From contig JAQBGU010000183.1 in the NCBI GenBank assembly GCA_032128375.1, positions 1-64,000 of the forward strand: 64,000 nucleotides of DNA, given 5' to 3'. The notes beneath the pieces were generated by a model, which had not been told where the DNA came from, did not search any database, and saw only the letters and a program-made list of their open reading frames with translations. Below are positions 28,608 through 49,275 of this stretch, piece after piece. Positions within the stretch are counted from its first letter, which is position 1. The number at the start of each line of letters is the position of its first letter. The position numbers were made by a program, and so were the translations under genes. This stretch comes from Deltaproteobacteria bacterium. GTDB taxonomy: Bacteria > Myxococcota_A > UBA9160 > SMWR01.

Positions 28608-28924
28608 CCGTTCCGGCTCCCTGGCAATGAGCTGGCGATCGTGCAATTTCGGGTCGACCGTTGTCTTTCCACGCGGGATACTCTCCACATCGATCGGATG
28701 AGCCCGTCCGACAAATGTCGGGACTCCCCTAGAGACGAGTTCGGTGGATCTCTAGGAGGTCTCATCGGAATACGACGGGGAGGCCTGAATCACCTCGCAC
28801 ACAAGATCCGCGGCTCGGATGGAAAATGCATTCAATTTCGGGGGATCCTGCGACGATACTACTTGCTGAGGAGCACCCCGCCCGAATGGCTCAGGCTGGC
28901 TCCGAAAGCATATCCGGGGGAATC

Positions 28925-30628
28925 ATGTCCAAGACTCTGCTGTTGGCAGACGACAGTGTCACGATCCAAAAAGTCGTGGGAATCAGTTTTGCCAGTGAAG
29001 ACGTGGCGGTCATCGCGGTCGACAATGGCGATGATGCGATCGCCAGGGCGCGTGAAGAGCGTCCCGATGCGATCCTTGCGGATGTCGTGATGCCGGGCAA
29101 AAACGGTTACGAAGTCTGTGAGGCGATCAAAGCCGACCCGGCTCTCGCGCACATTCCGGTAGTGCTGCTGACTGGGACATTCGAGGCGTTCGATGCCGAC
29201 CGCGCCGAGAGCGCTGGGGCAGCGGGTCACATCGCCAAACCCTTCGAATCGCAGACGTTGGTCGATATGGTCATGAAGTTGTTCTCGTCGACACCCGCTC
29301 CCGCAGTCGCCGCGGGCACGAACCCGCGGGCTGCTCGATCCCGGATCGCGATGGATATCCCGCCAGTCGCGCAGGCATCGACCCCCGACGCTCCCAGTGG
29401 GCCAGAGGCGGACGCCTTCGATTTCTTCGACGACGACCTCGAAGCGGCCGATGTCGTGGCTGAGCCGGAGCGGCTCGACGGCCACCCATCGCATGGGTTC
29501 GGCTCAGAATCCGCGTTTACTTTCAGCGAAGCAGACCTCGCACCGACAGCGGAAACGCCCTTGGCTGCTACGCAGCCGGCCCTCGCGGCCGCCGATTCCA
29601 TGCGAGTTGCAGGATCTACGGCCGAGATGCCGATATCCGCAATGGCTGACGAGATCGAACCGTTCGCGGTGGTCGGCGGGCATGAGTTCGACGATGACCT
29701 CGGCCAGGATCTGTCACTCGATTCCCAGCTGGATATCGACGCCGACCTGGGCCGACCGATGTCGGTTGCCGGTGAGTTTGATGCATCGATCACTTTCGAC
29801 GACGCACCGCAACCAGGTGACTCTCTGGCGCCGCTCGATAACGCGGGCAACTCCACCGATGACCCCTTCGACTTCGCATTCGAGTCGGGCAACCCGGACC
29901 CGCTGGCGGCAAGCGACGCCGAGCTGACGCGCGTAGACGGGATCGACCTGATGCAAGATTCGACGCTATATCCCGGAGCCGGGCCGAATTTCGACGTAGC
30001 GTCGTCCGACTTCGACCCCGCTGGGTTGGGCGGGTCCGAGATGACGGTGCAATTGGGTCTCGAGCCATCCGGGCACAACATCGATACCGGGTCGGAGCCC
30101 GAGCCGGCCGGTGACGGGGTCGTCGTCTCGCCAGATCACACATTTGGCGACTACTACAGCGCCACAGAACTCGCTACGACTGAGCCGGTCGACCTGGTTT
30201 CGAGCGAAGTCGTCGCATCGTTCGAGGGTCCCCAAACGGCACACGAACCGACGTCCGAGCCCGTATTCGAGCCGGCGGCCGACGCTGCATCCGATTTCGA
30301 AGCCCACCCGCTCCCTGACGCCCTACCCAGCTCGTCATTCGGCGCCCTCACGGCTGCTGAGACGTCTGTGTTCGATGCGTCTGATTCGAAAACAGCGGCA
30401 CGCGCGCAGGCGGTCTTGGAGCAGATCGAGCCGGAATTGCGGCTGCAGCTCCACGATACGCTCGAGAAAATCGCCTGGGAGGCGTTTGCCGACCTCACGG
30501 ACTCAATCGTTCGCCTATCCGTTGCCAAGGTCGAGAAAATCGCTTGGGAAGTCGTCCCTCAGCTGATCGAGACACTGGTCCGGGAAGAGATCCGCAAAAT
30601 GAAGGGCGAACCTCCCAGCGACGACTAG
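28925..30628 (+). CDS. romR: RomR-like polarity response regulator
   Basis: Receiver LLADDSVTIQKV...GTFEAFD...KPFESQ, long acidic linker, C-terminal EKIAWEVVPQL helix as in myxobacterial RomR. Confidence 0.85.
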   Translation: MSKTLLLADDSVTIQKVVGISFASEDVAVIAVDNGDDAIARAREERPDAILADVVMPGKNGYEVCEAIKADPALAHIPVVLLTGTFEAFDADRAESAGAAGHIAKPFESQTLVDMVMKLFSSTPAPAVAAGTNPRAARSRIAMDIPPVAQASTPDAPSGPEADAFDFFDDDLEAADVVAEPERLDGHPSHGFGSESAFTFSEADLAPTAETPLAATQPALAAADSMRVAGSTAEMPISAMADEIEPFAVVGGHEFDDDLGQDLSLDSQLDIDADLGRPMSVAGEFDASITFDDAPQPGDSLAPLDNAGNSTDDPFDFAFESGNPDPLAASDAELTRVDGIDLMQDSTLYPGAGPNFDVASSDFDPAGLGGSEMTVQLGLEPSGHNIDTGSEPEPAGDGVVVSPDHTFGDYYSATELATTEPVDLVSSEVVASFEGPQTAHEPTSEPVFEPAADAASDFEAHPLPDALPSSSFGALTAAETSVFDASDSKTAARAQAVLEQIEPELRLQLHDTLEKIAWEAFADLTDSIVRLSVAKVEKIAWEVVPQLIETLVREEIRKMKGEPPSDD

Positions 30629-32794: not shown

Positions 32795-33630
32795 CGGTTC
32801 TGTTGGTGATCGACATCGGGAACACCAACGTGGCGTTGGGAATTTTCGACTATGCCAGCGGCGGACCTATTTCTGGCAGCCCTGCGGCAGAACTCTCCAA
32901 TCACTGGCGCATGAGTACTCATCGCGAGCAAACCTCTGATGAAGTCGGTCTGACCGTTCGCACGCTGCTCGAGCAGACGGGCCGCGCCTGCTCCGACGTC
33001 ACTGACTTGATCATTTCGAGCGTCGTACCTCCTCTGCTCCCAATCTGGGAGCGGGTCTCGACAAAATTGTTTGGCCGCAGCCCGCTCGTCGTCGGGCCGG
33101 GGATTCGAACCGGAATGCCGGTTCTGTACGAGAACCCGCACGAACTCGGCGCAGACCGAATCGTCAATGCGCTAGCGGCGTTCGAACTATTCGGCGGCCC
33201 TGTGATCGCAGTGGACTTCGGGACCGCAACGACCTTCGATTGTGTATCGAAAGGCGGTGAGTATCTCGGAGGCGTAATTTTCCCCGGCATCCACACCTCG
33301 ATGGAAGCGCTTTTCGAGCGTGCCTCCATGCTTCACCGGGTCGAGATCGCACGCCCGCGCAGCGTCATTGGCCGTACCACTACGGGCGCGTTGCAATCCG
33401 GCTTGCTGTACGGCTTCGCCGGCATGGTCGACTCGATGGTCGCACGGATCCGCTCCGAACTCGGGTCGGATGCGCGTGTGGTCGCCACAGGTGGACTCGC
33501 GGGACGCGTCGCATCCGAGTGCGCCTCCATCGAGCAGGTGGAACCCTTCCTGACTTTGGAAGGGCTCCGAATGATCTTCGAGAAGAACCGACCCAATGCC
33601 GAATCATCACGAAAGGAGCCCTCCCCATGA
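32791..33630 (+). CDS. coaX: Type III pantothenate kinase
   Basis: DIGNTN, SSVVP, LGADR, DFGTATT, ATGG. Confidence 0.95.
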   Translation: MTVLLVIDIGNTNVALGIFDYASGGPISGSPAAELSNHWRMSTHREQTSDEVGLTVRTLLEQTGRACSDVTDLIISSVVPPLLPIWERVSTKLFGRSPLVVGPGIRTGMPVLYENPHELGADRIVNALAAFELFGGPVIAVDFGTATTFDCVSKGGEYLGGVIFPGIHTSMEALFERASMLHRVEIARPRSVIGRTTTGALQSGLLYGFAGMVDSMVARIRSELGSDARVVATGGLAGRVASECASIEQVEPFLTLEGLRMIFEKNRPNAESSRKEPSP

Positions 33631-35678
33631 ACGATGTGAAGGTCAACGACACTCACAGCTTTGCTCTGATTGGTCACAGTGGCGATGGCAAGACTTCGCT
33701 TGGCGAAGCGATCCTCCACCTCACCGGCGCAACCACATCGCTGGGTAGCGTCGTAGATGGGACTGCACATCTGACCTCGCTCCCCGAGGAAAAGGAACGC
33801 CAGTCGACGCTTACGACGGCGATCTTCGGGTTCGATTGGTCGAACAAGCACATCACGCTAATCGACACGCCTGGAGACTCGAACTTTCAGGCCAACGGCC
33901 GGATCGCGCTCGGCGCTGTCGACGGTGCGGTCTTGGTTGTGTCCGCGAGTTCTGGGGTCAAGGTCGGAACTGACCGGATGTGGCAACACTGCGAATCCAT
34001 TGCTGTCCCTGCGCTGTGTTACGTGAGCGGGATGGACAAAGAACACGCGAACTTCGACAGTGCAGTGGCCTCACTCAACAATATGGGCGCCAAGCCGGCA
34101 ATCGTGACGCTGCCGATCGGAACCGGAAGGGATTTCCAGGGCATCGTCAATCTGCTGTCGATGAAGTCGCAGACCGAAGACGGGGAAGCCGAGATTCCCG
34201 AGGCTCTGGCCGAAGCAGCGGAAGACGCACGCGCGCAGTTGGTCGAATCGGTCGCCGAATGCGACGACGACCTGCTCGAAAAGTACCTCGAGGAAGGGGA
34301 ACTCACCGCGGATGAGGTGGCACGCGGATTGGTGGCTGCCACCCGGTCGCGCAAGATACTGCCGGTATTCTGCGGGGCGGCTACTTCCCGGGCTTCGGTC
34401 GCTGCGATTCTGGACGGGGTGCTGGGGTTGCTGCCGTCGGCCGCCGATCGGCAAGCATGGGCGAGCGTCGACGACGGCGACCCGGTGCCCGCCGACCCCG
34501 ATGCGCCCTTTTCAGCGGTAGTGCTGAAAACGGTCATCGACCGCTACGCGGGCACCTTATCGGTGTTTCGAGTGATCTCGGGTACAGCTCACGCCGACAC
34601 GCCAGTTCTGAACATGACCCGAGAATCGAAGGAGCGGTTCGGAAAGCTGCACATTCTGCGCGGTCCCGAGCACATCGAGATCGAGAGCGCCGGGCCTGGA
34701 GACATTGCTGCGGTCGCCAAACTGAAATCCACCCGTACCGGAGACGTGCTGTGTGCTGAGAAGGGCGGCCCGCAGATCGCTCCGATCCCGATTCCCCAGG
34801 GTGTCATTTCCTACGCCATCTCCGCGAAGGTGAAGGGGGATGAGGATAAAGTTTACACCTCGCTCGGCCGACTTGTGGAGGAGGACCCGACCCTGCAACT
34901 GGGTCGAGAAGCGTCCACCGGCGAGTTTTTGCTCACCGGCATGGGGGAGCTTCACGTTCGAATTACCGTGCAGAAGCTCCAACGCTTGTTCGGAGTCGAA
35001 GTCGAACTCAAGACACCAAAAGTCCCCTACCGCGAAACCATCAGACGCAAGGTCGAAAATGTCGAAGGCAAGCTCAAGAAGCAGACAGGCGGCAAGGGAA
35101 TGTTCGGCGTGTGTTATTTGACGGTCGAACCCCGGCAGACCGGAGAGGGAATTGAGTTCGTTGACGAAATCAAGGGTGGCTCCATTCCACGGGGCCTGAT
35201 TCCGGCGGTCGAAAAAGGCGTGTTCGAAGCCTGCAATATCGGGCCGCTTGCCGGATACCCCATTGTCGACATGAGGATCCGCTGCACCGACGGAAAGTTT
35301 CACGCTGTCGATTCGAACGAGATGGCCTTCAAACTCGCGGCGCACGCCGGAATCAAGGCCGCCATGCTGCAGGCCAAGCCGACTCTGCTCGAACCGGTCA
35401 TGGACGTCGAAGTCTCGATTCCGGGACAATTCGTCGGCGACATCATGGGCGATCTGTCGAGCCGCCGCGGGCGCGTCCAGTCGAGCGACGCAAAGGGTTC
35501 AACCCAGATCATCAAGGCTCAGGTACCGATGTCGGAGATGCTCGAGTATGCAAGCCAGCTCACCAGTATCACCGGAGGTCAGGGCGAGTTCCACATGGAA
35601 TTTTCCCACTACGCGGACGCTCCGAGCCACGTGAAGGACAAGGTCATCGCTGAGGCATCCCACGCCGATCAGACGTAA
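33627..35678 (+). CDS. fusA2: Elongation factor G-like protein (EF-G2 type)
   Basis: EF-G domains I-V (GMGELH, KKQTGG.G, DGKFHAVDS); divergent G motifs. Confidence 0.9.
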   Translation: MNDVKVNDTHSFALIGHSGDGKTSLGEAILHLTGATTSLGSVVDGTAHLTSLPEEKERQSTLTTAIFGFDWSNKHITLIDTPGDSNFQANGRIALGAVDGAVLVVSASSGVKVGTDRMWQHCESIAVPALCYVSGMDKEHANFDSAVASLNNMGAKPAIVTLPIGTGRDFQGIVNLLSMKSQTEDGEAEIPEALAEAAEDARAQLVESVAECDDDLLEKYLEEGELTADEVARGLVAATRSRKILPVFCGAATSRASVAAILDGVLGLLPSAADRQAWASVDDGDPVPADPDAPFSAVVLKTVIDRYAGTLSVFRVISGTAHADTPVLNMTRESKERFGKLHILRGPEHIEIESAGPGDIAAVAKLKSTRTGDVLCAEKGGPQIAPIPIPQGVISYAISAKVKGDEDKVYTSLGRLVEEDPTLQLGREASTGEFLLTGMGELHVRITVQKLQRLFGVEVELKTPKVPYRETIRRKVENVEGKLKKQTGGKGMFGVCYLTVEPRQTGEGIEFVDEIKGGSIPRGLIPAVEKGVFEACNIGPLAGYPIVDMRIRCTDGKFHAVDSNEMAFKLAAHAGIKAAMLQAKPTLLEPVMDVEVSIPGQFVGDIMGDLSSRRGRVQSSDAKGSTQIIKAQVPMSEMLEYASQLTSITGGQGEFHMEFSHYADAPSHVKDKVIAEASHADQT

Positions 35679-35752: not shown

Positions 35753-36937
35753 TTGGACAACGAACGAGATTCGGCAAAAGCTTCAAAGGCTTCTGAAGGG
35801 GCATCCGAACAGGGCTCTCTACAAGGCTCTTTACAGGCCTCTTTACAGGCCTCTTTACAAGCCTCTTTACAGGGTAAGGAACCGCAGAAGATCCGCCTCA
35901 ACCTGTCTGCGCAGGCGGCACGCTATGCGCGTCGCGACGCGCCGCGCGAAACCCGGCTGATGGCGGCACGGGGCGCCCTGCCCTTGCCGGCCACTGAACT
36001 GGCGGCCGTACTGTTCGCGCTCATGCACGACGCGGATGCGGAGGTCAAGTCCACCGCGCGCGACAGCCTCGAGAATTTACCGGAGGGTGTGACCCACTCC
36101 GTGCTGATCGGCGATACCCATTCAGCCGTGCTGGCATTTTTCTGCCACCGATTCGAGGGCAACGAAGACGCGCTCGAGAAGATCGCACTGAATGCCGCGA
36201 CATCCGATGCAACGATCGCCCTACTGGCCGCTTCACCGCATAAGAAGATCATCGACATCGTTTCGGGCAATCAGGAGCGGATGCTTCGCCATCACGACAT
36301 CGTCGAGGCGCTCGGATCCAATCCACTGACCGGGCGCTCCGAACTCGAGCGAATTCTGTCGTTCATCGATGCTCCGACCGACCTCGATGATCATCCCGAC
36401 CCATCGACGCCGATCAGTGACGACGAAGCGGAAGCCGCGCTGCGCGCCGTGTTGGGTGATTCAATGGGCCACTACGCCGGTAAATTCGTCACCGAATCCG
36501 ACATGAACGACGAGCCTGATTCCGGCGGCGGGATCTACCAACTCGTTCAGAAAATGTCGGTCTTTCAGAGGATCAAACTCGCGCGGCTTGGCAACAAGGA
36601 GGCGCGGAGCCTGTTGGTGCGAGATCGCAACAAACTGGTCTCGCTGGCGGTCGTCATGAGTCCGAAGATCACGGAATCCGAGATCGTCTCGATCGCGCAG
36701 TCGCGCAACGTAACCGACGAAGTACTGCGTGTGATCGCTCGCGGCCGGGACTGGACCAAGAATTATCAAGTCAAGCTCGCGCTCTCGACCAACCCCAAGT
36801 GCCCGCTGCCGGTCGCGATGCAATTCGTGAATTACCTGCAGGACAAGGATCTCCGCATGCTCGTGCGCAGCCGAGACGTATCACAGGGAATCTCGACGCA
36901 CGCCCGCCGGATCCTGATGAAAAAAGGGAAGCTCTGA
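35753..36937 (+). CDS. Conserved helical-repeat hypothetical protein
   Basis: Repeated LxxNP motifs, KLARLGNKEARSLL; TGATG overlap with the next gene. Confidence 0.8.
   Translation: MDNERDSAKASKASEGASEQGSLQGSLQASLQASLQASLQGKEPQKIRLNLSAQAARYARRDAPRETRLMAARGALPLPATELAAVLFALMHDADAEVKSTARDSLENLPEGVTHSVLIGDTHSAVLAFFCHRFEGNEDALEKIALNAATSDATIALLAASPHKKIIDIVSGNQERMLRHHDIVEALGSNPLTGRSELERILSFIDAPTDLDDHPDPSTPISDDEAEAALRAVLGDSMGHYAGKFVTESDMNDEPDSGGGIYQLVQKMSVFQRIKLARLGNKEARSLLVRDRNKLVSLAVVMSPKITESEIVSIAQSRNVTDEVLRVIARGRDWTKNYQVKLALSTNPKCPLPVAMQFVNYLQDKDLRMLVRSRDVSQGISTHARRILMKKGKL
35810..35873. repeat. In-frame 12-bp tandem repeat x5 (SLQA/SLQG)
   Basis: CTCTTTACAGGC-like units. Confidence 0.85.
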
Positions 36938-38040
36938 TGGCGAAGCACATCCACGATGATGCGCTCGTCAACGCGCGGATCCTGTACTGGGGCGCTGAGC
37001 ATTCAGGCAAGTCTGAGAACCTCCGCACCATCTACCGCAGACTGCGACCCGATCATCGCGGGCCGCTCAAGGCTGTCCCAACGCGAATCGACCCATCGGT
37101 CGAATACGAGGTGCTGCCGATCGAGCTGGGCGACGTGGGAGGATTTCGAACGGCAATCGAGATGATCGCGGTACCCGGCGCTGCGGATCAAGCACCGACC
37201 CGCAAACAGCTGTTAGATGAAGTCGACGGGATCGTGCTCGTGATCGACTCGCAGGCCACGCGGATCGCCGACAACGAGGCGAGCCTTCAAGAGTTGCGCT
37301 CCGCGCTTGCCGACTACGGACGGCGCCTCGAAGACATTCCGCTGGTCATCCAATACAACAAGCGGGATTTGTCGGATCCGTACACACTCGACGAACTGCA
37401 CCGCAGGCTCGACGTGCGCGGCGCGGCCGTATTCGAAGCGGTCGCCACCGAACCAACGGGGGTCCTGAAGACCCTGTCGACGCTATCCAAGCGCGTCGTC
37501 CGGACCCTGCGCGATCGGAAATTCGATACTGCTGGTCAATCGGGCAACCTCGACTTTGGCCCCCCGTCCGTAGCCGACGCCCGCAGCGACTCCGACTCGC
37601 TCGCAGAAGTCTCGGGTCGCATGGAGAAGGCCATCCTGGCCGAGGAGTCTCACCCGGAATCGGACGCGATCGCGGACCTCACAGCACGAACCGAGAGTCT
37701 GCTCGATGATTCCTGGGACCTGGTTGCGCCCGACTCCGAGGCCGATGCAGGCCTCGACGGACTCGATGCGCGCTATGCGCTCGAGCCCCTCGAAGCATTC
37801 GGGCCATTCGAGCCACTCGGGCCAGCGTCATCGAATACGCCCCAGTTGGGCCCCGAACTGTCGATCACGTCTGTCGGCGAAGCAACCCGCTGCGGTCAGC
37901 GGGCCGTGCGAGTCCCGCTCGTCGTCGCAGACAAGGAGGGTCGTTCGACCACCTTGGTACTGACGATCTCGCTCGACACCCTGTCCTCCTGCTCGCCCGA
38001 CTCGTCGCATGACGGCGCGCCAGAAGAGGCACGAGATTGA
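36937..38040 (+). CDS. MglA-family small GTPase paralogue with C-terminal extension
   Basis: Gapless similarity to MglA: ILYWG....GKS.NL, VPG, VDGIVLVIDSQ, QYNKRDL. Confidence 0.85.
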   Translation: MAKHIHDDALVNARILYWGAEHSGKSENLRTIYRRLRPDHRGPLKAVPTRIDPSVEYEVLPIELGDVGGFRTAIEMIAVPGAADQAPTRKQLLDEVDGIVLVIDSQATRIADNEASLQELRSALADYGRRLEDIPLVIQYNKRDLSDPYTLDELHRRLDVRGAAVFEAVATEPTGVLKTLSTLSKRVVRTLRDRKFDTAGQSGNLDFGPPSVADARSDSDSLAEVSGRMEKAILAEESHPESDAIADLTARTESLLDDSWDLVAPDSEADAGLDGLDARYALEPLEAFGPFEPLGPASSNTPQLGPELSITSVGEATRCGQRAVRVPLVVADKEGRSTTLVLTISLDTLSSCSPDSSHDGAPEEARD

Positions 38041-40328
38041 TGCGCAAGCGAATAGCGATCTATTGCGCAAACGATGAAGTACTGCAGCTGATCCCCTCAC
38101 TGCTTGCGAACCCCGACTTGGAGATCACGGCGATCTTCGACCGCGCAGCGTCGAAGATCCGGCAACGACTTCCTGATTTCGGCCGCGAACTGGGGCCGCT
38201 GCTCGGCGCGAAACTCACGGACCGGGTCGAAGACCTCATCGACGACGCGGCGCTTCACACGATCATCGATGCGAGTGTTGAACTCGACTTCGCGAGGCAA
38301 CATTCCGACATCGTTGACCGCGGCGTACAGGTCATCTCACCTCTGACGGCTCGCTTGCTGTGGTGTTTTGTGCCGACCTCAGCACATCGCAAGACCGAAC
38401 TTCTCGGGGTGCTCCACGAACTCGTAGAATCGTACAACCTCACCATCGATGCGGATGCCCTGTTCTCGCGCATGCTGGAGATAGCCGTCAGTGTGACGGG
38501 AGCCGAAGCCGGTTCATTGATGCTGCTGGACACCGAAAACCGAGAGCTCCGGGTGCGCGTTGCCACCGGAATCGAACCGGAATTGTGGACGAAAATTCGC
38601 GTTCCGCTCGGGGAAGGCATCGCCGGCCGTGTGGCTGCCGACGCTCGCCCTCTGCGGTTGCGCGGAAAGGCCGATGGGCGGGCGTTTCACATCGTGCGCG
38701 AACGTCTCGACGTCGAGTCGGCGCTCTGTGTGCCCATGATCTTCGAAGGGCGCGTGCTGGGTGTGCTGAATCTCCATCACTCGACGCGTCCCGACACCTT
38801 TACCGACGATGATCTCGAATTCGCTGAGCAGCTCGCCCGACTGGACGCGCAGATCATCGCGCAATCTCAGGCACACGAGGTGCTGCGCGGCCAGGCGGAA
38901 CGCTACGAGGCAGTCCGCCATGTGCGAGGCGAACTCGCGGGAAAGGCTACATTGCCAGACCGGCTGCGCGGGCTGTGTCGATTCATCGCCCGGCACGCGG
39001 GCAACGGCATCGCGACGATCTACTTGTGCGACCCGGGCGACGACGGGCTCAGACTCGGAGCCACTTCGCTAGAGGGCGGTGGCTTCGGCGGCGAGTATCG
39101 AATCGCGGTCGGCCAGGGTATCGACGGCACGGTAGCGCGCACCCGCGATGCCATGATTCTCAAGACTCCCGACGGAGCGCTCGCCTACGCCGCGCTTCCG
39201 CTCGTGGCGGGCGAGACGTTTGCGGGCGTGCTCAGTGTACAGGGCGGCGAGCGTGCACCGCGTGGCCGTGCGATGGAAGAGACGCTACTCGAAATCGCGG
39301 CCGCAGCAGCCGAGGAGATCGTCCACGCGAATCAGACTGCGGCCATGACTTCACGCGCCACGCAGCTGAGTGCCGTCAACGAGACCGGAATCAAGATGAT
39401 CTCGACCGAAGACCTCGCAGAGGTGCTGCGTCTCGGCACATCCTCCGCGGCCATGGTCCTGGAGGCCGATCACACGATCTTGCGCCTGCACGACGAACAG
39501 ACCGGACGCTTCGTGATTCGCTCCTACTTTGGCTCTGCAGACGGCCCGCTCCAAGAGCGCTTGTTTCGACTCGACAAGCAGGTCTCCGTAACCGCGATCA
39601 AGCGGCGCGGCCCCCACTTGATTCGCGACATCGCACTGCACGCCGAAACGCGAGAGTTCGACACTGAGCTGCGCAGCGCGATTGCGGCGCCTCTGATGCG
39701 AGAGGCTCATGTGATGGGGACACTGGCGATCTACGACAAGGTTGAAAGCGACCAGTTCCATGTGGGGCGCTTCTCAGACGATGACCTGAGACTCTTTGGA
39801 AAGTTCGTGTCTTACCTCGAACGCGCCCTCGCCAATGCGATGTTCCACGCCCAGGCGCGACGGTTCCGAAACTTTGATACCGAAACCGGCCTGCCAAACT
39901 CGGTCTATCTCGAAAAACGGATCGTCGAAGAAGTCGCGCGCGCGGCTGGGGCCGAAAGCGCACTCGCAATCGCCGTCTGCAAGCTCGAGAACCTCGACGA
40001 AATCGAGCGCTCCGCTGGTGCTACGCGCGTGCGCCAGGTCGTCGCTCGCAGCGTCGACGCGTTGAGGAGCCACCTGCGCGACTTCGACGTCCTCGGCCGC
40101 ACCAGCGACAACGAGTTCACGATCCTGCTGCCCGACCCTGGCGTATCCGCGAGCGATCGCGTGTTCGCGCTCGCTCGCGCGGTTGCGGACGACCTCTCCG
40201 GCAACGAAGCCCTCAACGCGGGGGCCCGGATTGCGTTGGGCTTCGGCTATGCGGTCTATCCGGGCGACGGAGCCGATTGCGGTGCGCTGCTCGAAAAAGC
40301 CTGCGAACCTCGCATCCGAATGGTGTAG
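38040..40328 (+). CDS. Multi-GAF protein with degenerate GGDEF domain
   Basis: GAF motifs (GEGIAGRVA, GQGIDGTVA), DTETGLPN, RDFD-x5-SDNEF. Confidence 0.85.
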   Translation: MRKRIAIYCANDEVLQLIPSLLANPDLEITAIFDRAASKIRQRLPDFGRELGPLLGAKLTDRVEDLIDDAALHTIIDASVELDFARQHSDIVDRGVQVISPLTARLLWCFVPTSAHRKTELLGVLHELVESYNLTIDADALFSRMLEIAVSVTGAEAGSLMLLDTENRELRVRVATGIEPELWTKIRVPLGEGIAGRVAADARPLRLRGKADGRAFHIVRERLDVESALCVPMIFEGRVLGVLNLHHSTRPDTFTDDDLEFAEQLARLDAQIIAQSQAHEVLRGQAERYEAVRHVRGELAGKATLPDRLRGLCRFIARHAGNGIATIYLCDPGDDGLRLGATSLEGGGFGGEYRIAVGQGIDGTVARTRDAMILKTPDGALAYAALPLVAGETFAGVLSVQGGERAPRGRAMEETLLEIAAAAAEEIVHANQTAAMTSRATQLSAVNETGIKMISTEDLAEVLRLGTSSAAMVLEADHTILRLHDEQTGRFVIRSYFGSADGPLQERLFRLDKQVSVTAIKRRGPHLIRDIALHAETREFDTELRSAIAAPLMREAHVMGTLAIYDKVESDQFHVGRFSDDDLRLFGKFVSYLERALANAMFHAQARRFRNFDTETGLPNSVYLEKRIVEEVARAAGAESALAIAVCKLENLDEIERSAGATRVRQVVARSVDALRSHLRDFDVLGRTSDNEFTILLPDPGVSASDRVFALARAVADDLSGNEALNAGARIALGFGYAVYPGDGADCGALLEKACEPRIRMV

Positions 40329-40353: not shown

Positions 40354-41466
40354 TCACCCAAGCAGACTCGACAGTTCCACGAGCGGAAGATCCAGAGACG
40401 CAGCCACCCCTTCACAGACGATGTGGCCGCGCCACACATTGACACCAAGAGCCAACGCCGGATCGGATCTTGTGGCGGCTTCGACGCCCATTTCGGCGAT
40501 TCGCTCGATCAATGGCAGCGTGGTGTTGGTCAGGGCGAATGTCGACGTCCGCGGAACTGCGCCGGGCATGTTCGCGACGCCGTAGTGGATCACGCCATGG
40601 AGCTTGTAAGTTGGATTGGAGTGCGTCGTCGGGCGGATGGTCTCGATGCATCCGCCCTGGTCAACTGCAACGTCTGCGACCACCGAACCCGGTTCCATCT
40701 TTTGGATCATCGCTTCGCTCACCACAGTGGGTGTGCGACGACCGTGCAGGTAGACGGCACCGATCACCAGATCGCTCGTGGTGACGGACTTCTCGATATT
40801 GGCTGGCGTCGAATACAGCGTGTTCAGTTCGCCACCAAAAATGTCGTACAAGTACGTGAGTCGCTTCAGGTCGATATCGAGCACATCGACCTCGGTGCCG
40901 AGTGCGTGTGCGACGCGCACCGCATTGATTCCGACTGTGCCGGCGCCGATCACCGTCACTCGGCCACGCATCACACCAGGCACACCACCGAGCAGCAATC
41001 CCTTGCCACCGTTGTCCTTCTGAAGCAGCGTGACACCGATCTGGACCGCGAGTCGACCCGCCACCTCGCTCATCGGAGCGAGTATCGGGAACGAACCGTC
41101 GGGGCTGCGGATCGTTTCGTAGCCGATCGCGATCACATCGGCCTTGCACAGTCCGTCGGCGAGTTCTGGCGCCGCTGCGAGGTGGAGATAGGTGAACAGA
41201 ATTTGGCCGGGTCTCAGCCTCTGGGTCTCGTGCGGCTGTGACTCCTTCACCTTGACGACCATCTCCGGTCGGGACCAGACCTCGTCGATATCGACGATTC
41301 GTGCTCCGGCTGCCTCGAATTGGGCATCGGAAAAGCCACTGCCGACGCCGGCGGAAGTTTCGACCAGCACCTCGTGTCCCTTTGCCAGTAGCTGACGTAC
41401 ACCGTCGGGCACCATCGCGACCCGAAACTCCATGTCCTTGCATTCGCGCGGTACACCGATCCGCAT
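40354..41466 (-). CDS. ald: Alanine dehydrogenase
   Basis: [40 protein letters not shown]. Confidence 0.96.
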
Positions 41467-45803: not shown

Positions 45804-45914
45804 CCATCGCGTAGGTCCATCGCGTAGGTCCATCGCGAACTCTTTTCGAGCAGAACCCTGAGAACACTGCCCTTGGAACACTGCCCTTGGAACACAGGCC
45901 TTGGAACACAGCCC
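45804..45914. repeat. Two adjacent tandem arrays (13 bp x2.6; 14 bp x3.8)
   Basis: CCATCGCGTAGGT at 45804/45817/45830; GAACACTGCCCTTG-like at 45862/45876/45890/45904. Confidence 0.88.
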
Positions 45915-46203
45915 ATCGCGCCGCGTATCGTGTCACGCTGCACCGGCTCGAAGGCAGCCATTTCGGCGTCGGGTCTTGCCCGTGCGGTCACGCTCGGGAT
46001 ATTCTGCTCGTACCCCTGTGCCAACACAAGCATCCAGACCCAGCCCACACCAGACCAGTACACAGCCAAGACCAATCCAAAACCAAGCGACTGCAAAATG
46101 CACTCTCCTCCAACGTTCGGGGTGCAAATTGCGCGGAAACAGTGGGCTCGTCGGCCAAAACCGACGCGTGGAAGTACGGGTCAGGAAGCATCAGGGGACC
46201 CGC

Positions 46204-49200
46204 GTGGCCGAAATCGGAGAATTCGTCCGAGCGATCCAGGCACACCGCGAGCTTCGCGGAGCCGTTGCGCACCACGAAGTCCTACGAGCGCGACCGGCCC
46301 AGATCGAACCGAAGCTATCGCCCGCCTTCGAACCGCTCGCGCACATGCTCGAGCGAAGCGGAATTCGCGGACTCTACAGCCACCAGGCCCGCGCACTCGA
46401 GCTGATCGAATCCGGCGAGAACGTCGTACTTTCTACGCCGACTGCGAGTGGCAAGACGCTCGTCTACAACCTGCCGGTACTGCGACGCGCACTGGCAGAT
46501 CGGAAATCTCGCGCTCTCTACGTGTTCCCCCTCAAAGCACTGGAGTGGGACCAGCGGCGGCGACTCGAACGAGACATTGCACTGCTCGGCGACGAGGCTT
46601 CCGACATCGGGGTGGCGATCTATGACGGCGACACACCTCAGAGTCAGCGACGCAAGATTCGCGACAATCCGCCGCAGGTTCTGATCACGACGCCCGATAT
46701 GCTCCACGCGGGGATTCTCCCGCACCACGCTGCGTGGAAGACCTTTTTCGAGGGGCTGGGGTTGGTTGCGCTCGACGAGCTGCATACCTACCGCGGAATC
46801 TTCGGCTCTCACGTGGCCCAGGTGCTGCGACGCCTGGATCGGGTCGCTCGCTTTCACGGCACGCGACCGCAATTCGTAGCGTCCTCTGCGACGATCGCAA
46901 ACCCGGGCGAGCTCGCTACTTCACTCACGGGACGACGCTTCTCGGTGGTCGAAAACAGCGGCGCGCCACTCCAGCAGCGACAAGTACTGCTGTTTCGCCC
47001 GACGGGTTCAGCGTACACCCTGGCTGCCCAGTTGTTTCGACTGTCCATCGGGCTCGGTCTTCGAACGATTGCGTTCACCAAGGCGCGTGTGATCACCGAG
47101 CTGATTCACAGCTGGGTGATCGAGGCTGAGCCCGATCTCGAGCCCAAGATCAGTTCGTACCGCGCCGGATTCCTGCCCGAAGAGCGCCGCGAGATCGAAA
47201 CCCGACTCTTCAGCGGCGAGCTGTTGGGCGTCATCTCGACTTCGGCTCTCGAGCTCGGGATCGACGTCGGTGGCCTCGACGTCTGCCTGCTCGTCGGATA
47301 CCCCGGAAGCCAGGTATCAACCTGGCAGCGCGGCGGACGCGTCGGGCGCAGCCAAGAAGCCTGCATCGCTCTGATCGCCCAGCCCGATGCGCTCGATCAA
47401 TACCTGGTGTCCCACCCGCGAGACTTTTTCGACCGCGCATTCGAACACGCGATCGCCGACCCCCACAATCCGGAGATCCTATCGGCACACCTGCCTTGTG
47501 CGGCTGCGGAAGTGCCATTGCGCGCCGACGAGCCGTGGATGATCGAACCCAAAATGCAGCAGGCCGTCGAGGGCCTCGAGCAAGCTGCGCGGCTATTGCG
47601 CAGCGAATCAGGCCATGAGTGGTTCGCAGCGCGCAGAAGACCTCACCTCGATGTTCGACTGCGCCAAGTAGGTTCGAGCTACGCCATCGCGCTCGCGGGC
47701 GACTCCAACCAGAAGACCCCCAGCGATCACAACGCGCGCGCAAAGCTGATCGGTACGATCGGGTCGGCGAATGTGTTCTCCGAGTGTCACGAAGGTGCGA
47801 TCTACCTGCATCGAGGGCAGCAGTACGCAGTCACCGAACTCGATCGAGATGAACTCGTCGTATGGGTTCGGCGCGTCGACATGCCTCACTACACCCGCGC
47901 ACTGTCGGAAAAGCAGACGGAAATCCTGTCTCGTGATCGAACCCGACCGGCGGGGAACTTCCAGGTCGTGCAGGGACGCGTCAAGGTGACCAAGACCATC
48001 ACCGGCTACGAGCGGCGCCGAATTCGCGGTCAAGAGCTGCTGGGAACCGAGCCGCTCGACCTGCCCCCGACTTCGTTTGAAACCGTTGGAATCTGGCTGG
48101 AGTTTCCCGACGAAATCGAGCAGGCGCTCAAGGATGCGGGTCGCCATGTCATGGGAGGCATCCACGCCAGCGAGCATGCCGCACTGTCGCTGTTTCCGTT
48201 ATTCGCACTGTGTGATCGGCTCGATGTCGCGGGAATCTCCTACGTCCGCCACCCGCAGACGAAACGTGCGGCGATTTTCTTCTACGACGCCGTGCCTGGC
48301 GGGGTCGGTCTCGCCGCTAGCCTGTTCGATCGCGTCGAAGTTCTACTCGACGCGACGTGCGACTTGATTGCGGATTGCTCGTGCGAAGAAGGTTGCCCCG
48401 CCTGTGTACATTCGCCAAGGTGCGGCAGCGGTAACCGCCCGATCGACAAAGCCTCGGCCGTGATCGCGCTGCGCTTGCTGCTGGCCCGAGACCCACTTCC
48501 GCAGCTTCGCGACGATCGCTCCGGTGCACCCGGCGACATCGAGGATCCCGCCCGCGCGGCTGTGGCCACTGATCGCTCCGCTCCGCACGTGATCTACCTT
48601 GACCTCGAGACCCAGCGCAGCGCCAAAGATGTCGGCGGCTGGCACAACGCGCACCTGATGCGCGTGGCGCTGGCGGTCACATTCGACTCGAAGACACTTG
48701 CGTTTCGCACCTTTCATGAAAACGAGGTACACGGCCTGGTGGAGAGCCTGAAACAGGCAGACCTGATCGTGGGCTTCAACATCGTGAGCTTCGACTACTC
48801 GGTGTTGCGCGGCTATACCGATTTCGACCTGAAGGGGCTCCCGACGTTCGACATGCTGACGGCAATCCACCAGCGTCTGGGCTATCGACTCGCGCTCGGT
48901 CACATTGCCGAACAAACACTGGGTGTGAGCAAGGGGGGCGACGGTCTCCAATCTCTGGCCTGGTGGAAGGAAGGCCGCTTGGAGGAAATCGAGCGCTACT
49001 GCACACAGGACGTCTTACTGCTGCGCGATCTGCTCGATCACGCCGAGCAGCACGGACACCTGTGCTTCCAAACCAAGCGAGGGGATCGGGTGCGATTGCC
49101 CGCGCCCTGGAAGATCGATGAATTGATCGAGCAGACGAAATCGCGCTCGATCCAGCTAGCCGATTCACCACAGATCAATACATCACAGACAAGTTCACCT

Positions 49201-49275
49201 CAGACAAGACCTACCCCCAACCGAAGTCGGCTGCGATGGGTCGAACCCGCTGCCGCAGGACGCTACTCGACATGA
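46204..49275 (+). CDS. DEAH helicase with DUF1998 (MrfA/YprA-like) fused to a YprB/MrfB-like exonuclease
   Basis: TPTASGKT, DELH, SAT, QRGGRVGR, HASEH, CSCEEGCPAC..C; C-terminal DLET, GFN...FD, YC..DV. Confidence 0.9.
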   Translation: MAEIGEFVRAIQAHRELRGAVAHHEVLRARPAQIEPKLSPAFEPLAHMLERSGIRGLYSHQARALELIESGENVVLSTPTASGKTLVYNLPVLRRALADRKSRALYVFPLKALEWDQRRRLERDIALLGDEASDIGVAIYDGDTPQSQRRKIRDNPPQVLITTPDMLHAGILPHHAAWKTFFEGLGLVALDELHTYRGIFGSHVAQVLRRLDRVARFHGTRPQFVASSATIANPGELATSLTGRRFSVVENSGAPLQQRQVLLFRPTGSAYTLAAQLFRLSIGLGLRTIAFTKARVITELIHSWVIEAEPDLEPKISSYRAGFLPEERREIETRLFSGELLGVISTSALELGIDVGGLDVCLLVGYPGSQVSTWQRGGRVGRSQEACIALIAQPDALDQYLVSHPRDFFDRAFEHAIADPHNPEILSAHLPCAAAEVPLRADEPWMIEPKMQQAVEGLEQAARLLRSESGHEWFAARRRPHLDVRLRQVGSSYAIALAGDSNQKTPSDHNARAKLIGTIGSANVFSECHEGAIYLHRGQQYAVTELDRDELVVWVRRVDMPHYTRALSEKQTEILSRDRTRPAGNFQVVQGRVKVTKTITGYERRRIRGQELLGTEPLDLPPTSFETVGIWLEFPDEIEQALKDAGRHVMGGIHASEHAALSLFPLFALCDRLDVAGISYVRHPQTKRAAIFFYDAVPGGVGLAASLFDRVEVLLDATCDLIADCSCEEGCPACVHSPRCGSGNRPIDKASAVIALRLLLARDPLPQLRDDRSGAPGDIEDPARAAVATDRSAPHVIYLDLETQRSAKDVGGWHNAHLMRVALAVTFDSKTLAFRTFHENEVHGLVESLKQADLIVGFNIVSFDYSVLRGYTDFDLKGLPTFDMLTAIHQRLGYRLALGHIAEQTLGVSKGGDGLQSLAWWKEGRLEEIERYCTQDVLLLRDLLDHAEQHGHLCFQTKRGDRVRLPAPWKIDELIEQTKSRSIQLADSPQINTSQTSSPQTRPTPNRSRLRWVEPAAAGRYST

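Follow-up and report, generated by a model that had tools for sequence, protein, structure and literature searches.

How c-di-GMP feeds into the switch built on MglA, the main bacterial model of a Ras-like polarity switch, is an open question, and the part of the DmxA study drawn on here describes the effectors through which a c-di-GMP burst sets the polarity of RomR as unknown (PMC11255338). The locus described here raises the question of whether a bacterial small G protein can serve, loaded with nucleotide, as an adaptor that a second messenger controls, and its three small, expressible proteins make it possible to ask. In many uncultured Myxococcota, what appears to be one operon joins a member of the MglA family that has lost its catalytic residues, a protein of the c-di-GMP-receptor type and a conserved putative scaffold. 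No description of this trio was found in the literature searched. The combination is conserved and unstudied, and through it cell polarity may be linked to a second messenger.

Gene organisation and conservation

The DNA analysed, hereafter the window, is the 64-kb stretch from position 1 to 64,000 of contig JAQBGU010000183.1 of a Deltaproteobacteria bacterium (Myxococcota_A; UBA9160; SMWR01; assembly GCA_032128375.1). Three open reading frames follow one another on its forward strand: g1 (35753, with a TTG start, to 36937) encodes a 394-aa putative alpha-solenoid of the HEAT/ARM-like type, g2 (36937..38040) a 367-aa MglA paralogue composed of a G domain and a C-terminal extension, and g3 (38040..40328) a 762-aa protein with an N-terminal domain, three consecutive GAF domains and a degenerate GGDEF domain. 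The TGA stop of g1 (36935-36937) ends on the A at 36937 that also opens the ATG of g2, giving a TGATG overlap at 36935..36939; g2 and g3 are joined in the same way, the A at 38040 belonging both to the TGA stop of g2 (38038-38040) and to the start codon ATG of g3 (TGATG at 38038..38042), all on the forward strand. The reading frames and both junctions are thus as the original prediction described them. The chosen starts of g2 and g3 also fit their relatives, because M1 of g2 is invariant in 55 orthologues and nearly all of the g3 orthologues listed are 762 aa long; the latter carry no more specific name than "GAF domain-containing protein" or "diguanylate cyclase-like".

Co-conservation was surveyed in 80 related loci from metagenome-assembled genomes, with counts taken over the loci that had room for the gene in question. 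We found that g2 directly follows g1 in 77/77 loci and g3 follows g2 in 54/59, and that an overlap of 1 or 4 nt is present between g1 and g2 in 65 of 75 loci and between g2 and g3 in 51 of 60. The arrangement of the trio is not due to chance. The predicted co-conservation therefore holds within the window's class, but it breaks down outside it, where 28 of the 30 loci sampled have g1 but no g2. The five loci of 59 that lack g3 still hold g2 next to g1, with the C-terminal domain of g2 present, and the g1-g2 pair recurs with different downstream genes in two other families of the phylum (L099 and L107). These are the only two distant loci with an R53-less MglA-like gene, which in both lies directly after g1 in the absence of g3. 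Because the g1/g2 overlap is so frequent, and because the pair persists in both these distant loci and the five g3-less ones, we conclude that g1-g2 is the older and tighter pair.

The MglA paralogue g2

The G domain of g2 (aa 1-200; 36937..37536, forward strand) was delimited by residue mapping against MglA. A phmmer search of the PDB with g2 gave MglA for all of its best matches, and the alignment with M. xanthus MglA (6h17; E 3e-35) is gapless over residues 10-192 in the same numbering, with 39% identity; identity to the canonical MglA of its own genome is 38%. Consistently, the g2 model superposes best on MglA-GTPgammaS (Foldseek top match 6h17, TM 0.86 on target, rmsd 2.2 A). The guanine-nucleotide-binding motifs G1, NKxD and G5 are recognisable in g2: the P-loop G19-S26 reads GAEHSGKS, which fits GxxxxGK[ST] and carries E21, and NKRD occupies 141-144. 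G19, G24, K25, N141, K142 and D144 are each conserved in 120/120 g2 orthologues.

Switch I of g2 carries P53 and S54, and switch II reads AVPGA with A78 and A82, so that E21, P53 and A82 stand against G21, R53 and Q82 of MglA. R53 and Q82 we take to be the Arg finger and the catalytic Gln of MglA, a numbering that agrees with the canonical paralogues here. In MglA, these intrinsic Gln and Arg residues are positioned by MglB (PMC4316618). The replacements run through the 120 orthologues: position 21 is E in 53, D in 47 and G in 3 (acidic in 100), position 53 is P in 116 and S in 4 and never Arg, and position 82 is Gln in a single case. In MglA itself, Thr78 occupies the G3 position where an Asp is usual (PMC3000849), and g2 shares the family trait of having no Asp there, with its Ala78 (Ala in 113 orthologues, Ser in 4, Thr in 3, Asp in none). 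Thus g2 has the G-domain homology and fold of the MglA family, group 1 in the sense of PMC4316618, and lacks its R53, its Q82 and the coupling to an mglB gene within four genes. All other MglA paralogues in the window's own genome and in five genomes of the phylum keep (D/E)RT and PGQ, and the g2 clade is split from them in the tree with 99/98 support. Taken together, the sequence data support the call, made in the original prediction, of a hydrolysis-impaired MglA paralogue, that is, one without the residues MglA uses in hydrolysis.

The family-specific extension of g2 comprises 170 aa and contains two conserved parts, both on the forward strand: a helical segment (aa 222-262; 37600..37722; AF2 helices 222-235 and 242-258, pLDDT 72-88), seen in the conservation profile, and a three-stranded beta-meander (aa 303-350; 37843..37986), seen in conservation and in the AF2 model, in which R318, R322 and R325 are near-invariant. 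The beta-meander has no Pfam match. Its HMM matches 74/74 complete g2 ORFs in related loci, and phmmer against 1.84 billion representatives returned 58 matches, each of them at the C-terminus of a protein no longer than 400 aa. This extended g2 clade is found mainly in the window's class.

The extension invites the reading that g2 is still a cycling GTPase, in which Q85 and an arginine from its own beta-meander (R318, R322 or R325), or from g1 or g3, replace Q82 and R53, making a self-contained G protein that has its own GAP or GEF and whose cycle is tuned by c-di-GMP. Indeed, Q85 lies only three residues past position 82 and is kept in 116/120 orthologues, the nucleotide-binding motifs are invariant, every complete g2 ORF carries the arginine-bearing domain, and different catalytic arrangements have been proposed for other groups of MglA proteins (PMC4316618). 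However, the acidic residue that prevails at position 21 is the type of change that blocks hydrolysis at Ras G12 and MglA G21 (PMC3983030), the switch-I Thr54 position is Ala in 23/120 orthologues, and AF2 does not place the C-terminal domain confidently on the G domain (pTM 0.53). Moreover, two g2 lineages (L073 and L083) have lost K25 or NKxD while the gene stays next to g1, as would be expected if selection acted on binding instead of catalysis. We therefore consider a cycling g2 unlikely.

The GAF/degenerate GGDEF protein g3

The N-terminal domain of g3 (aa 1-135; 38040..38444, forward strand) belongs to no known family: it has no Pfam match at E<=1 and no usable match in the ESM Atlas. 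Within the window's class it is present in 60 of 77 genomes, elsewhere in the phylum in 1 of 323, and by these counts g3 is confined to the class. Three Pfam GAF domains follow at about aa 137-273, 304-425 and 457-597 (38448..39830, forward strand); the first matches GAF_2 at 2e-33, and the second and third, scanned as pieces, match at 4e-4 and 7e-10. No transmembrane region was found in g3.

The C-terminal GGDEF domain (aa 611-754; 39870..40301, forward strand; PF00990, 2e-15) reads RDFD-VLGRT-SDNEF across its two sites, with the RxxD I-site (RDFD, aa 680-683; 40077-40088) five residues upstream of an A-site in which SDNEF (aa 689-693; 40104-40118) takes the place of GG(D/E)EF. Among 57 g3 orthologues, R680 and D683 are each conserved in 54, E692 in 51 and F693 in 50, and GG at 689-690 occurs in 0/57. 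An active diguanylate cyclase was considered for g3 and rejected, given the missing GG(D/E)EF A-site. A retained RxxD next to a decayed A-site is the pattern expected of degenerate-GGDEF c-di-GMP receptors, and g3, predicted earlier to be a GAF/degenerate-GGDEF protein and borne out as such by its sequence and conserved I-site, is probably a c-di-GMP receptor or sensor.

Genomic neighbourhood

As predicted, no mglB lies beside g2. In the whole 6.2-Mb assembly, Roadblock/LC7 (PF03259) was matched only once, on a different contig (C68), by a gene immediately 5' of the canonical mglA, so that the genome holds a canonical mglBA operon elsewhere. The romR gene anticipated about 5 kb upstream on the same strand was also found, as a RomR-like response regulator of 600 aa (28826..30628, forward strand), 5.1 kb 5' of g1. 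Response_reg (aa 39-149) is the only Pfam domain recognised in this protein; its translation shows the receiver, a long low-complexity linker of acidic character and, at the C-terminus, a conserved helix. No second copy of its last 90 aa occurs in the genome; used as a query, they match the C-tail of a receiver/Pro-rich/C-tail protein in two Myxococcus-like, large-genome members of the phylum (E 2e-6 and 3e-6) and nothing in three other genomes. All 43 related loci with room for it carry a homologue upstream in the same orientation, with four or five housekeeping genes between it and g1. Within the class, however, synteny extends over an entire block of some 15 kb (RomR, nadC, birA, coaX, EF-G, g1-g3, ald, sat). 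Adjacency in it is partly inherited order, the related genomes cannot count as independent samples, and the closeness of RomR to the trio may reflect this order and not function. We regard the RomR-like gene as linked context and as a putative member of the module at most.

This context lends itself to a second reading, that the trio, responding to c-di-GMP or GAF ligands, regulates a process unrelated to polarity, such as cofactor metabolism or, by way of the adjacent EF-G paralogue, translation; the proximity of RomR would then be inherited order. An EF-G paralogue is found upstream of g1 in 42/64 near loci and in one distant locus (L111), and coaX directly upstream of g1 in 8 of the 30 loci sampled outside the class, where a g1 without g2 often neighbours either coaX or a TPR gene; the window otherwise consists of housekeeping genes, with no motility, pilus or gliding genes within its 64 kb, and the RomR gene is not adjacent to the trio. 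Against this, EF-G is dispensable for the g1-g2 pairing, which persists without it in 19/64 loci where coaX is directly upstream, the RomR-like gene is upstream wherever there is room for it, and the characterised MglA-family proteins named in the portions of PMC4316618 and PMC3983030 used here all act in polarity, motility or development. A function outside polarity thus seems doubtful to us.

The helical-repeat protein g1

The conserved core of g1 spans about aa 45-394, and its first 44 aa are lineage-specific and of low complexity. A 12-nt tandem repeat of 5.4 copies (35809..35873, forward strand; Tandem Repeats Finder) encodes (G/A)SLQ repeats in this N-terminal extension and, according to the orthologue alignment, is missing from most orthologues. 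No Pfam or NCBIfam family matched g1 (no Pfam match at E<=0.01), yet 1129 relatives were found at E<=0.001 among 8000 candidates scored. The AF2 model is all-helical, with 25 helices (pLDDT 79). Its best PDB matches are a designed armadillo and other generic HEAT/ARM solenoids only (Foldseek E 4e-4, TM 0.25), and the best Z in the VIA structure comparison, 6.9, is under the level that the tool deems meaningful for helical repeats. The earlier call of a helical-repeat protein is supported by sequence and agrees with the all-helical model and its solenoid matches.

Of 401 genomes of the phylum, 358 contain a profile match to g1, which makes it a phylum-wide protein family without any annotation. 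Since g2 is missing beside it in 28 of the 30 loci outside the class, g1 is not a dedicated partner of g2 and must have a function independent of g2. It is nevertheless very unlikely that g1 is merely an independent housekeeping-like protein on whose expression a true g2-g3 pair, inserted downstream, is riding: the varied genes downstream of g1 in distant loci and the near-restriction of g3 and the extended g2 clade to the window's class would agree with this, but g1 and g2 overlap in most loci, g2 stays beside g1 in all five g3-less loci, and both distant R53-less MglA-like genes directly follow g1 without any g3.

Proposed mechanism

Taken together, we propose that the operon encodes a signalling or assembly unit around an MglA-type G protein that is no longer a hydrolysis-driven switch, gated by c-di-GMP or a GAF ligand and polar in its output. 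This explanation as a whole, which includes a single translationally coupled g1-g2-g3 operon, has in our estimate an even chance of being correct. Judging from the alignment, g2 keeps the residues for binding guanine nucleotides and lacks the small residue 21, the Arg finger R53 and the Q82 of MglB-stimulated hydrolysis. In this explanation it would most likely be fixed in one nucleotide state, presumably GTP-like, and act as an adaptor and not as a timer. The obligatory adjacency and overlap of the two genes suggest that the g1 solenoid could be a scaffold or effector of g2. The g3 protein is probably a GAF-mediated dimer whose GGDEF domain is predicted to make no c-di-GMP and to retain RxxD for binding it, and g3 may be the regulated step: c-di-GMP, a GAF ligand or both, instead of GTP hydrolysis, would set assembly or action. 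The likeliest output would be protein placement at a cell pole or landmark, in parallel with the cycling MglA/MglB encoded elsewhere, because of the analogy with MglA/RomR systems and the conserved upstream RomR-like gene. We infer the "polarity or landmark complex" of the original prediction from the same analogy.

A bolder extension, which we hold to be improbable, is that switching has passed from the GTPase cycle to the second messenger. Loaded g2 would sit on g1, an ancient Myxococcota solenoid, and be assembled or released by g3, giving a transient c-di-GMP-dependent landmark for RomR and polarity proteins of the kind that the DmxA work postulates. The older g1-g2 pair would in that case represent a class of G-protein landmark, independent of hydrolysis, that has not been seen before.

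Comparison with known systems

With the M. xanthus MglA/MglB/RomR-RomX module, in which RomR binds RomX and MglA-GTP and is localised at the poles, the locus shares the fold of g2, a RomR-like gene nearby and a canonical mglBA in the genome. Unlike MglA of that module, g2 has no MglB partner, G21, R53 and Q82 are replaced, Ala78 stands in place of Thr78, and the protein carries a C-terminal extension and is coupled to g1 and g3. SofG, an orphan MglA paralogue of M. xanthus, is likewise an extra paralogue with extensions and without a cognate MglB, but it keeps the arginine that g2 lacks and hydrolyses GTP in vitro (PMC4316618). In the two large Myxococcus-like genomes, none of the extra MglA paralogues found belongs to the g2 clade, and all retain (D/E)RT and PGQ. 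With its 367 aa, g2 also exceeds the size class of 150-240 aa given in a 2014 survey of prokaryotic small GTPases (PMC4316618).

The GGDEF domain of g3 resembles those of degenerate receptors such as CdgA (GVNEF), with RxxD five residues before the A-site position; PopA-type proteins are c-di-GMP receptors of the same degenerate-GGDEF kind. Like DmxA of M. xanthus (GAF-GAF-GGDEF), in which the GAF domains mediate dimerisation and the I-site Arg is required for c-di-GMP binding (PMC11255338), g3 has GAF domains before its GGDEF domain. It differs from DmxA in its SDNEF A-site, which is not that of a cyclase, and in its third GAF domain, its class-specific N-domain and its lack of a transmembrane region.

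The closest system is the invasive-pole hub of Bdellovibrio bacteriovorus, in which an orphan MglA (Bd3734), the helical-repeat TPR protein Bd2492 (SgmX1), the degenerate GGDEF receptor CdgA (Bd3125) and RomR (Bd2761) come together at the pole (PMC3983030, PMC11025332), although the RomR-Bd2492 interaction was not reproduced in a 2024 study (PMC11025332). Both sets comprise an MglA-type protein without a cognate MglB and with a residue other than Gly at position 21, read as non-cycling; S21 of the Bdellovibrio protein has been read as GTP-locked, and G21V lowers hydrolysis (PMC3983030). Both further comprise a partner with helical repeats, some 350 aa long, a (here, putative) c-di-GMP receptor whose GGDEF domain has a degenerate A-site, and a RomR homologue. 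The hub genes are scattered in Bdellovibrio, whereas three of their counterparts overlap in one apparent operon here. Bdellovibrio MglA is the only MglA of the cell, with most functionally important residues conserved (PMC3983030), whereas g2 exists in addition to a canonical mglBA, lacks R53 and Q82 and carries its 170-aa extension. Unlike the TPR protein Bd2492, g1 has no TPR Pfam match, and g3, unlike CdgA, has an additional N-domain of no known family and three GAF domains. In our reading, which draws on this analogy, the trio would comprise a non-cycling MglA-like adaptor, a scaffold and a c-di-GMP receptor, nearest among known systems to the MglA/Bd2492/CdgA/RomR hub of Bdellovibrio.

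Layout and conservation of the three-gene operon

The genes for a 394-aa helical-repeat protein (g1, 35753-36937), an MglA paralogue (g2, 36937-38040) and a GAF/degenerate-GGDEF protein (g3, 38040-40328) follow one another on the + strand. The TGATG stop/start overlaps claimed for them in the original prediction are indeed present: base 36937 is common to the stop TGA of g1 and the ATG of g2, and base 38040 to the stop TGA of g2 and the ATG of g3. Inspection of the sequence also revealed purine-rich stretches a few bases 5' of the g2 and g3 starts. Since all 55 g2 orthologues compared share M1 and the g3 orthologues listed are almost all 762 aa long, the start choices for both genes are those of their relatives. 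Upstream on the + strand lie the gene for a 600-aa response regulator (28826-30628), nadC (from 30786), birA (from 31763), coaX (from 32791) and, directly before g1, a gene for an EF-G paralogue (33519-35678), whose score of 620 bits with the EF-G equivalog TIGR00484 stays below the cut-off of 659 and which passes a subfamily model only. An alanine dehydrogenase gene (40354-41466) is convergent with the trio. PADLOC returned no defence-system match for g1-g3. Further along the window, 45901-49275 (+) encodes a 1124-aa protein that combines a DEAD/Helicase_C core with an MrfA Zn-binding domain (MZB) and an RNase_H-superfamily domain, and a JAB-domain gene and a PD40 gene lie on the minus strand downstream of the trio.

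The suggested gene-neighbourhood survey was run by scanning one genome per species, which yielded 80 loci, all from MAGs, with g1 relatives of 52-82% identity, and within the window's class the trio proved to be co-conserved. g2 directly follows g1 in 77/77 loci with at least 650 nt of room, and g3 comes next in 54 of the 59 loci with at least 3.9 kb (it is absent in L024, L030, L057, L076 and L083). A RomR-like gene lies 3.1-7.7 kb upstream on the same strand in 43/43 loci with at least 7.9 kb. Among 64 loci with room, the gene immediately upstream of g1 encodes the EF-G paralogue in 42 and is coaX in 19 and another gene in 3. Overlaps of 1 or 4 nt occur at the g1/g2 junction in 65/75 loci and at the g2/g3 junction in 51/60; because these genomes are relatives and the entire block is syntenic, none of these counts represents independent events. 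Most of the 80 loci are labelled Myxococcota or Deltaproteobacteria, and the few with other labels show unchanged synteny. With g1 identities of 55-66%, the RomR...g1-g2-g3 arrangement is found in several of the latter (L005, L008, L015, L020-L022 and others), and the labels of these MAG records (Spirochaetales, Opitutales or Gammaproteobacteria) look unreliable.

The response regulator at 28826-30628 had been called romR, and its architecture agrees with that name: a receiver domain is followed by a ~350-aa linker and a conserved C-terminal helix. Its last 90 aa occur nowhere else in the assembly. Used as a query, they hit the C-terminal end of a protein with a receiver/Pro-Ala-rich/C-tail layout in two large genomes of Myxococcus-like type (E 2e-6 and 3e-6) and nothing in three other genomes. 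RomR is described as a receiver domain plus a conserved C-terminal region (PMC3983030); the product fits this published build, which falls short of proof of orthology.

An MglA paralogue lacking key catalytic residues

In Pfam, g2 gave only a weak Arf-like match, and among PDB sequences it matched only MglA (M. xanthus and Thermus, E 3e-35). Residues 10-192 align without gaps with M. xanthus MglA, so that MglA numbering can be used directly for g2. For the AF2 model (pLDDT 75), the best superposition was with the GTPgammaS-bound M. xanthus MglA (6h17), at an rmsd of 2.2 A and a TM of 0.86 on the target. A canonical mglB-mglA pair is encoded on another contig (C68) of the assembly; its MglA shares 38% identity with g2 and bears the motifs GPGLCGKT, ERT and PGQ. 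g2 is thus an extra paralogue. The mglB of that pair is the only gene of the assembly in which a Roadblock domain was found, in line with the reported lack of mglB beside g2.

Compared with MglA, g2 carries E21 (G21), P53 (R53), S54 (T54), A78 (T78) and A82 (Q82). R53 and Q82 are the Arg finger and the catalytic Gln of MglA, and this numbering agrees with the (D/E)RT and PGQ of every canonical paralogue compared. Across 120 g2 orthologues, G19, G24, K25, N141, K142 and D144 are invariant; position 21 is E in 53, D in 47 and G in 3, position 53 is P in 116 and S in 4, position 54 is T in 79, A in 23 and S in 18, and Q occupies position 82 in just 1. MglB is reported to work by placing MglA's own Gln and Arg finger (PMC4316618). 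The G21V substitution reduces hydrolysis by MglA, and on the basis of a natural S21 Milner et al. proposed that Bdellovibrio MglA is permanently GTP-bound (PMC3983030). We infer that g2 would bind nucleotide but could not hydrolyse GTP by the MglA mechanism. One caveat is a possible shifted catalytic residue, as Q85 is kept in 116/120 orthologues. Taken together, the MglA-only PDB matches and the residues P53, A82 and E21 uphold, at the level of sequence, the view of g2 as a hydrolysis-impaired MglA paralogue. In two class MAGs (L073 and L083), the MglA-like protein adjoining g1 is without the P-loop Lys (K25; GSESAGLT) and/or NKxD and is probably a true pseudo-GTPase; L083 is without g3 too.

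At 367 aa, g2 is long compared with the 150-240 aa small-GTPase size class given in a figure legend of a 2014 prokaryotic survey (PMC4316618). Residues 200-367 comprise a conserved helical segment (~222-262) and a three-stranded beta-meander (~303-350) with near-invariant R318, R322, R325, D332, G335 and D347, and the meander had no Pfam match. An HMM of the meander matched 74/74 complete g2 ORFs of the related loci, including five loci without g3, which rules out a dependence of the meander on g3. Against 1.84 billion representative proteins, phmmer gave 58 matches, always C-terminal and in proteins of at most 400 aa; the meander looks confined to the g2 family. Used as a single-sequence probe, the g2 C-extension hit 38/401 phylum genomes, mainly of the window's own order, a figure that gives no distribution because the extension diverges too fast for such a probe. 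Apparent g2-g3 fusions (open frames of ~1100 aa) were rejected as stop-to-stop extension in GC-rich DNA, in a frame other than that of g2.

A helical solenoid and a candidate c-di-GMP receptor

No Pfam or NCBIfam match was found for g1, although it belongs to a large family with strong conservation. Its relatives numbered 1129 at E<=0.001 among 8000 candidates scored; the best 120 of them are 58-98% identical across ~90% of the protein, and all of these are nameless or 'hypothetical'. The AF2 model, from a 28-sequence alignment, is an all-helical solenoid of ~25 helices (pLDDT 79) whose structural matches were all armadillo, HEAT or alphaRep solenoids, either generic or designed (Foldseek E 4e-4, TM 0.25; VIA Z at most 6.9). 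The description as a helical-repeat protein is therefore correct, yet no specific family can be named. A g1 profile found nothing significant among PDB sequences (a single match, E 2.3), and the ESM Atlas gave nameless clusters plus one with HEAT in 19% of its members. Residues 1-44 are confined to close relatives, and most orthologues are without this extension; its (G/A)SLQ repeats stem from a tandem repeat with a 12-nt unit and 5.4 copies (35809-35873, +). Comparison of class with far homologues pointed to no clear g2-specific surface on g1.

Pfam assigned to g3 a strong GAF domain (137-273) and a GGDEF domain (611-754), and scanning in pieces added two more GAF domains (4e-4 and 7e-10). 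No Pfam match and no usable ESM Atlas match came up for residues 1-135. In the GGDEF domain, the sequence RDFD-VLGRT-SDNEF combines an RxxD I-site, the canonical five-residue spacing and an A-site that is degenerate. Of 57 orthologues, 54 keep R680, 54 keep D683, 50-51 keep EF and none has GG. An I-site that is kept while the A-site has decayed is the hallmark of c-di-GMP receptors of the GGDEF type. The three GAF domains, SDNEF and conserved RxxD bear out, as far as sequence goes, the assignment of g3 as a GAF/degenerate-GGDEF protein. The Bdellovibrio c-di-GMP receptor CdgA has a degenerate GGDEF domain with GVNEF (PMC3983030), and in DmxA the I-site Arg is required for c-di-GMP binding and the GAF region mediates dimerisation (PMC11255338).

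History of the operon beyond the class

The g1 profile matched 358/401 sampled phylum genomes (74/77 in the window's class and 283/323 elsewhere), and the N-domain of g3 was found in 60/77 genomes of the class and 1/323 elsewhere, at E 8e-5. Outside the class, 30 loci, one from each of 30 genomes, had g1 homologues of ~30-35% identity; coaX lies directly upstream of g1 in 8 of them and coaX-EF-G in 1. The link between the EF-G paralogue and g1 is also old, given their adjacency in 42/64 related loci and at the distant locus L111. A TPR protein gene is immediately 3' of g1 in 5 of the 30 far loci, and it is possible that this protein is an alternative partner of g1 outside the class. In these loci (L096, L098, L100, L102 and L110, from Myxococcus-like and related genomes), the g1 homologue is followed after 9-92 nt by the gene for a TPR protein of ~390-430 aa, and in L096 it lies between an enoyl-CoA hydratase gene and panB/panC. 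Neither the Myxococcus-like g1 homologue nor the TPR protein next to it could be named by a cluster look-up.

In only 2/30 far loci (L099 and L107), from two other families of the phylum, is g1 followed immediately by an MglA-like gene. Their order is nadC-(birA)-coaX-g1-MglA-like, then phoH and a 7TMR-HD gene, not g3. The two MglA-like proteins (751 and 887 aa) have P53, are without R53 and Q82, and bear a long unannotated extension. Maximum-likelihood analysis of 37 G domains split class g2 from all paralogues that keep R53/Q82 (support 99/98) and put the L099/L107 proteins on a long branch between both groups, their exact placement being unsure. Our reading is that g1 is an old Myxococcota gene to which a catalytically decayed MglA paralogue became attached in some lineages, g3 being added later in the window's class.

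The search of Myxococcus-like genomes found neither g2 nor g3. In two large genomes of this kind (G240:C1, ~7.02-7.05 Mb, and G355:C20), a distance of 15-25 kb separates the g1 homologue from the MglA-like match with the best score (E 3.5e-35 and 1.6e-37), which has canonical-type GPGLCGKT, ERT and PGQ. Another MglA paralogue in G240, with a 186-aa C-extension, is 3 kb from the best-scoring MglA-like gene.

Comparison with known polarity systems

A search of the open-access literature found no account of this operon or of an MglA paralogue without R53 and Q82. It is a reasonable inference that the trio may form a polarity or landmark complex that does not cycle and is gated by c-di-GMP. Researchers on polarity and on c-di-GMP should find the trio of real interest, although its host is uncultured and the Myxococcus-like genomes searched have neither g2 nor g3.

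The closest parallel is the Bdellovibrio invasive-pole hub, in which an MglA that has S21 and no MglB binds the TPR protein Bd2492 (353 aa), and Bd2492 and RomR bind CdgA (PMC3983030); the RomR-Bd2492 interaction was not reproduced in a later study (PMC11025332). The trio has the same cast, g1 being likened to Bd2492 by type. Unlike the Bdellovibrio hub, however, it is hard-wired in one operon, its genome also has canonical mglBA, g2 has lost more catalytic residues than Bdellovibrio MglA, and the partner domains differ. We rate the trio as a variant that belongs with the MglA-type polarity modules linked to c-di-GMP receptors.
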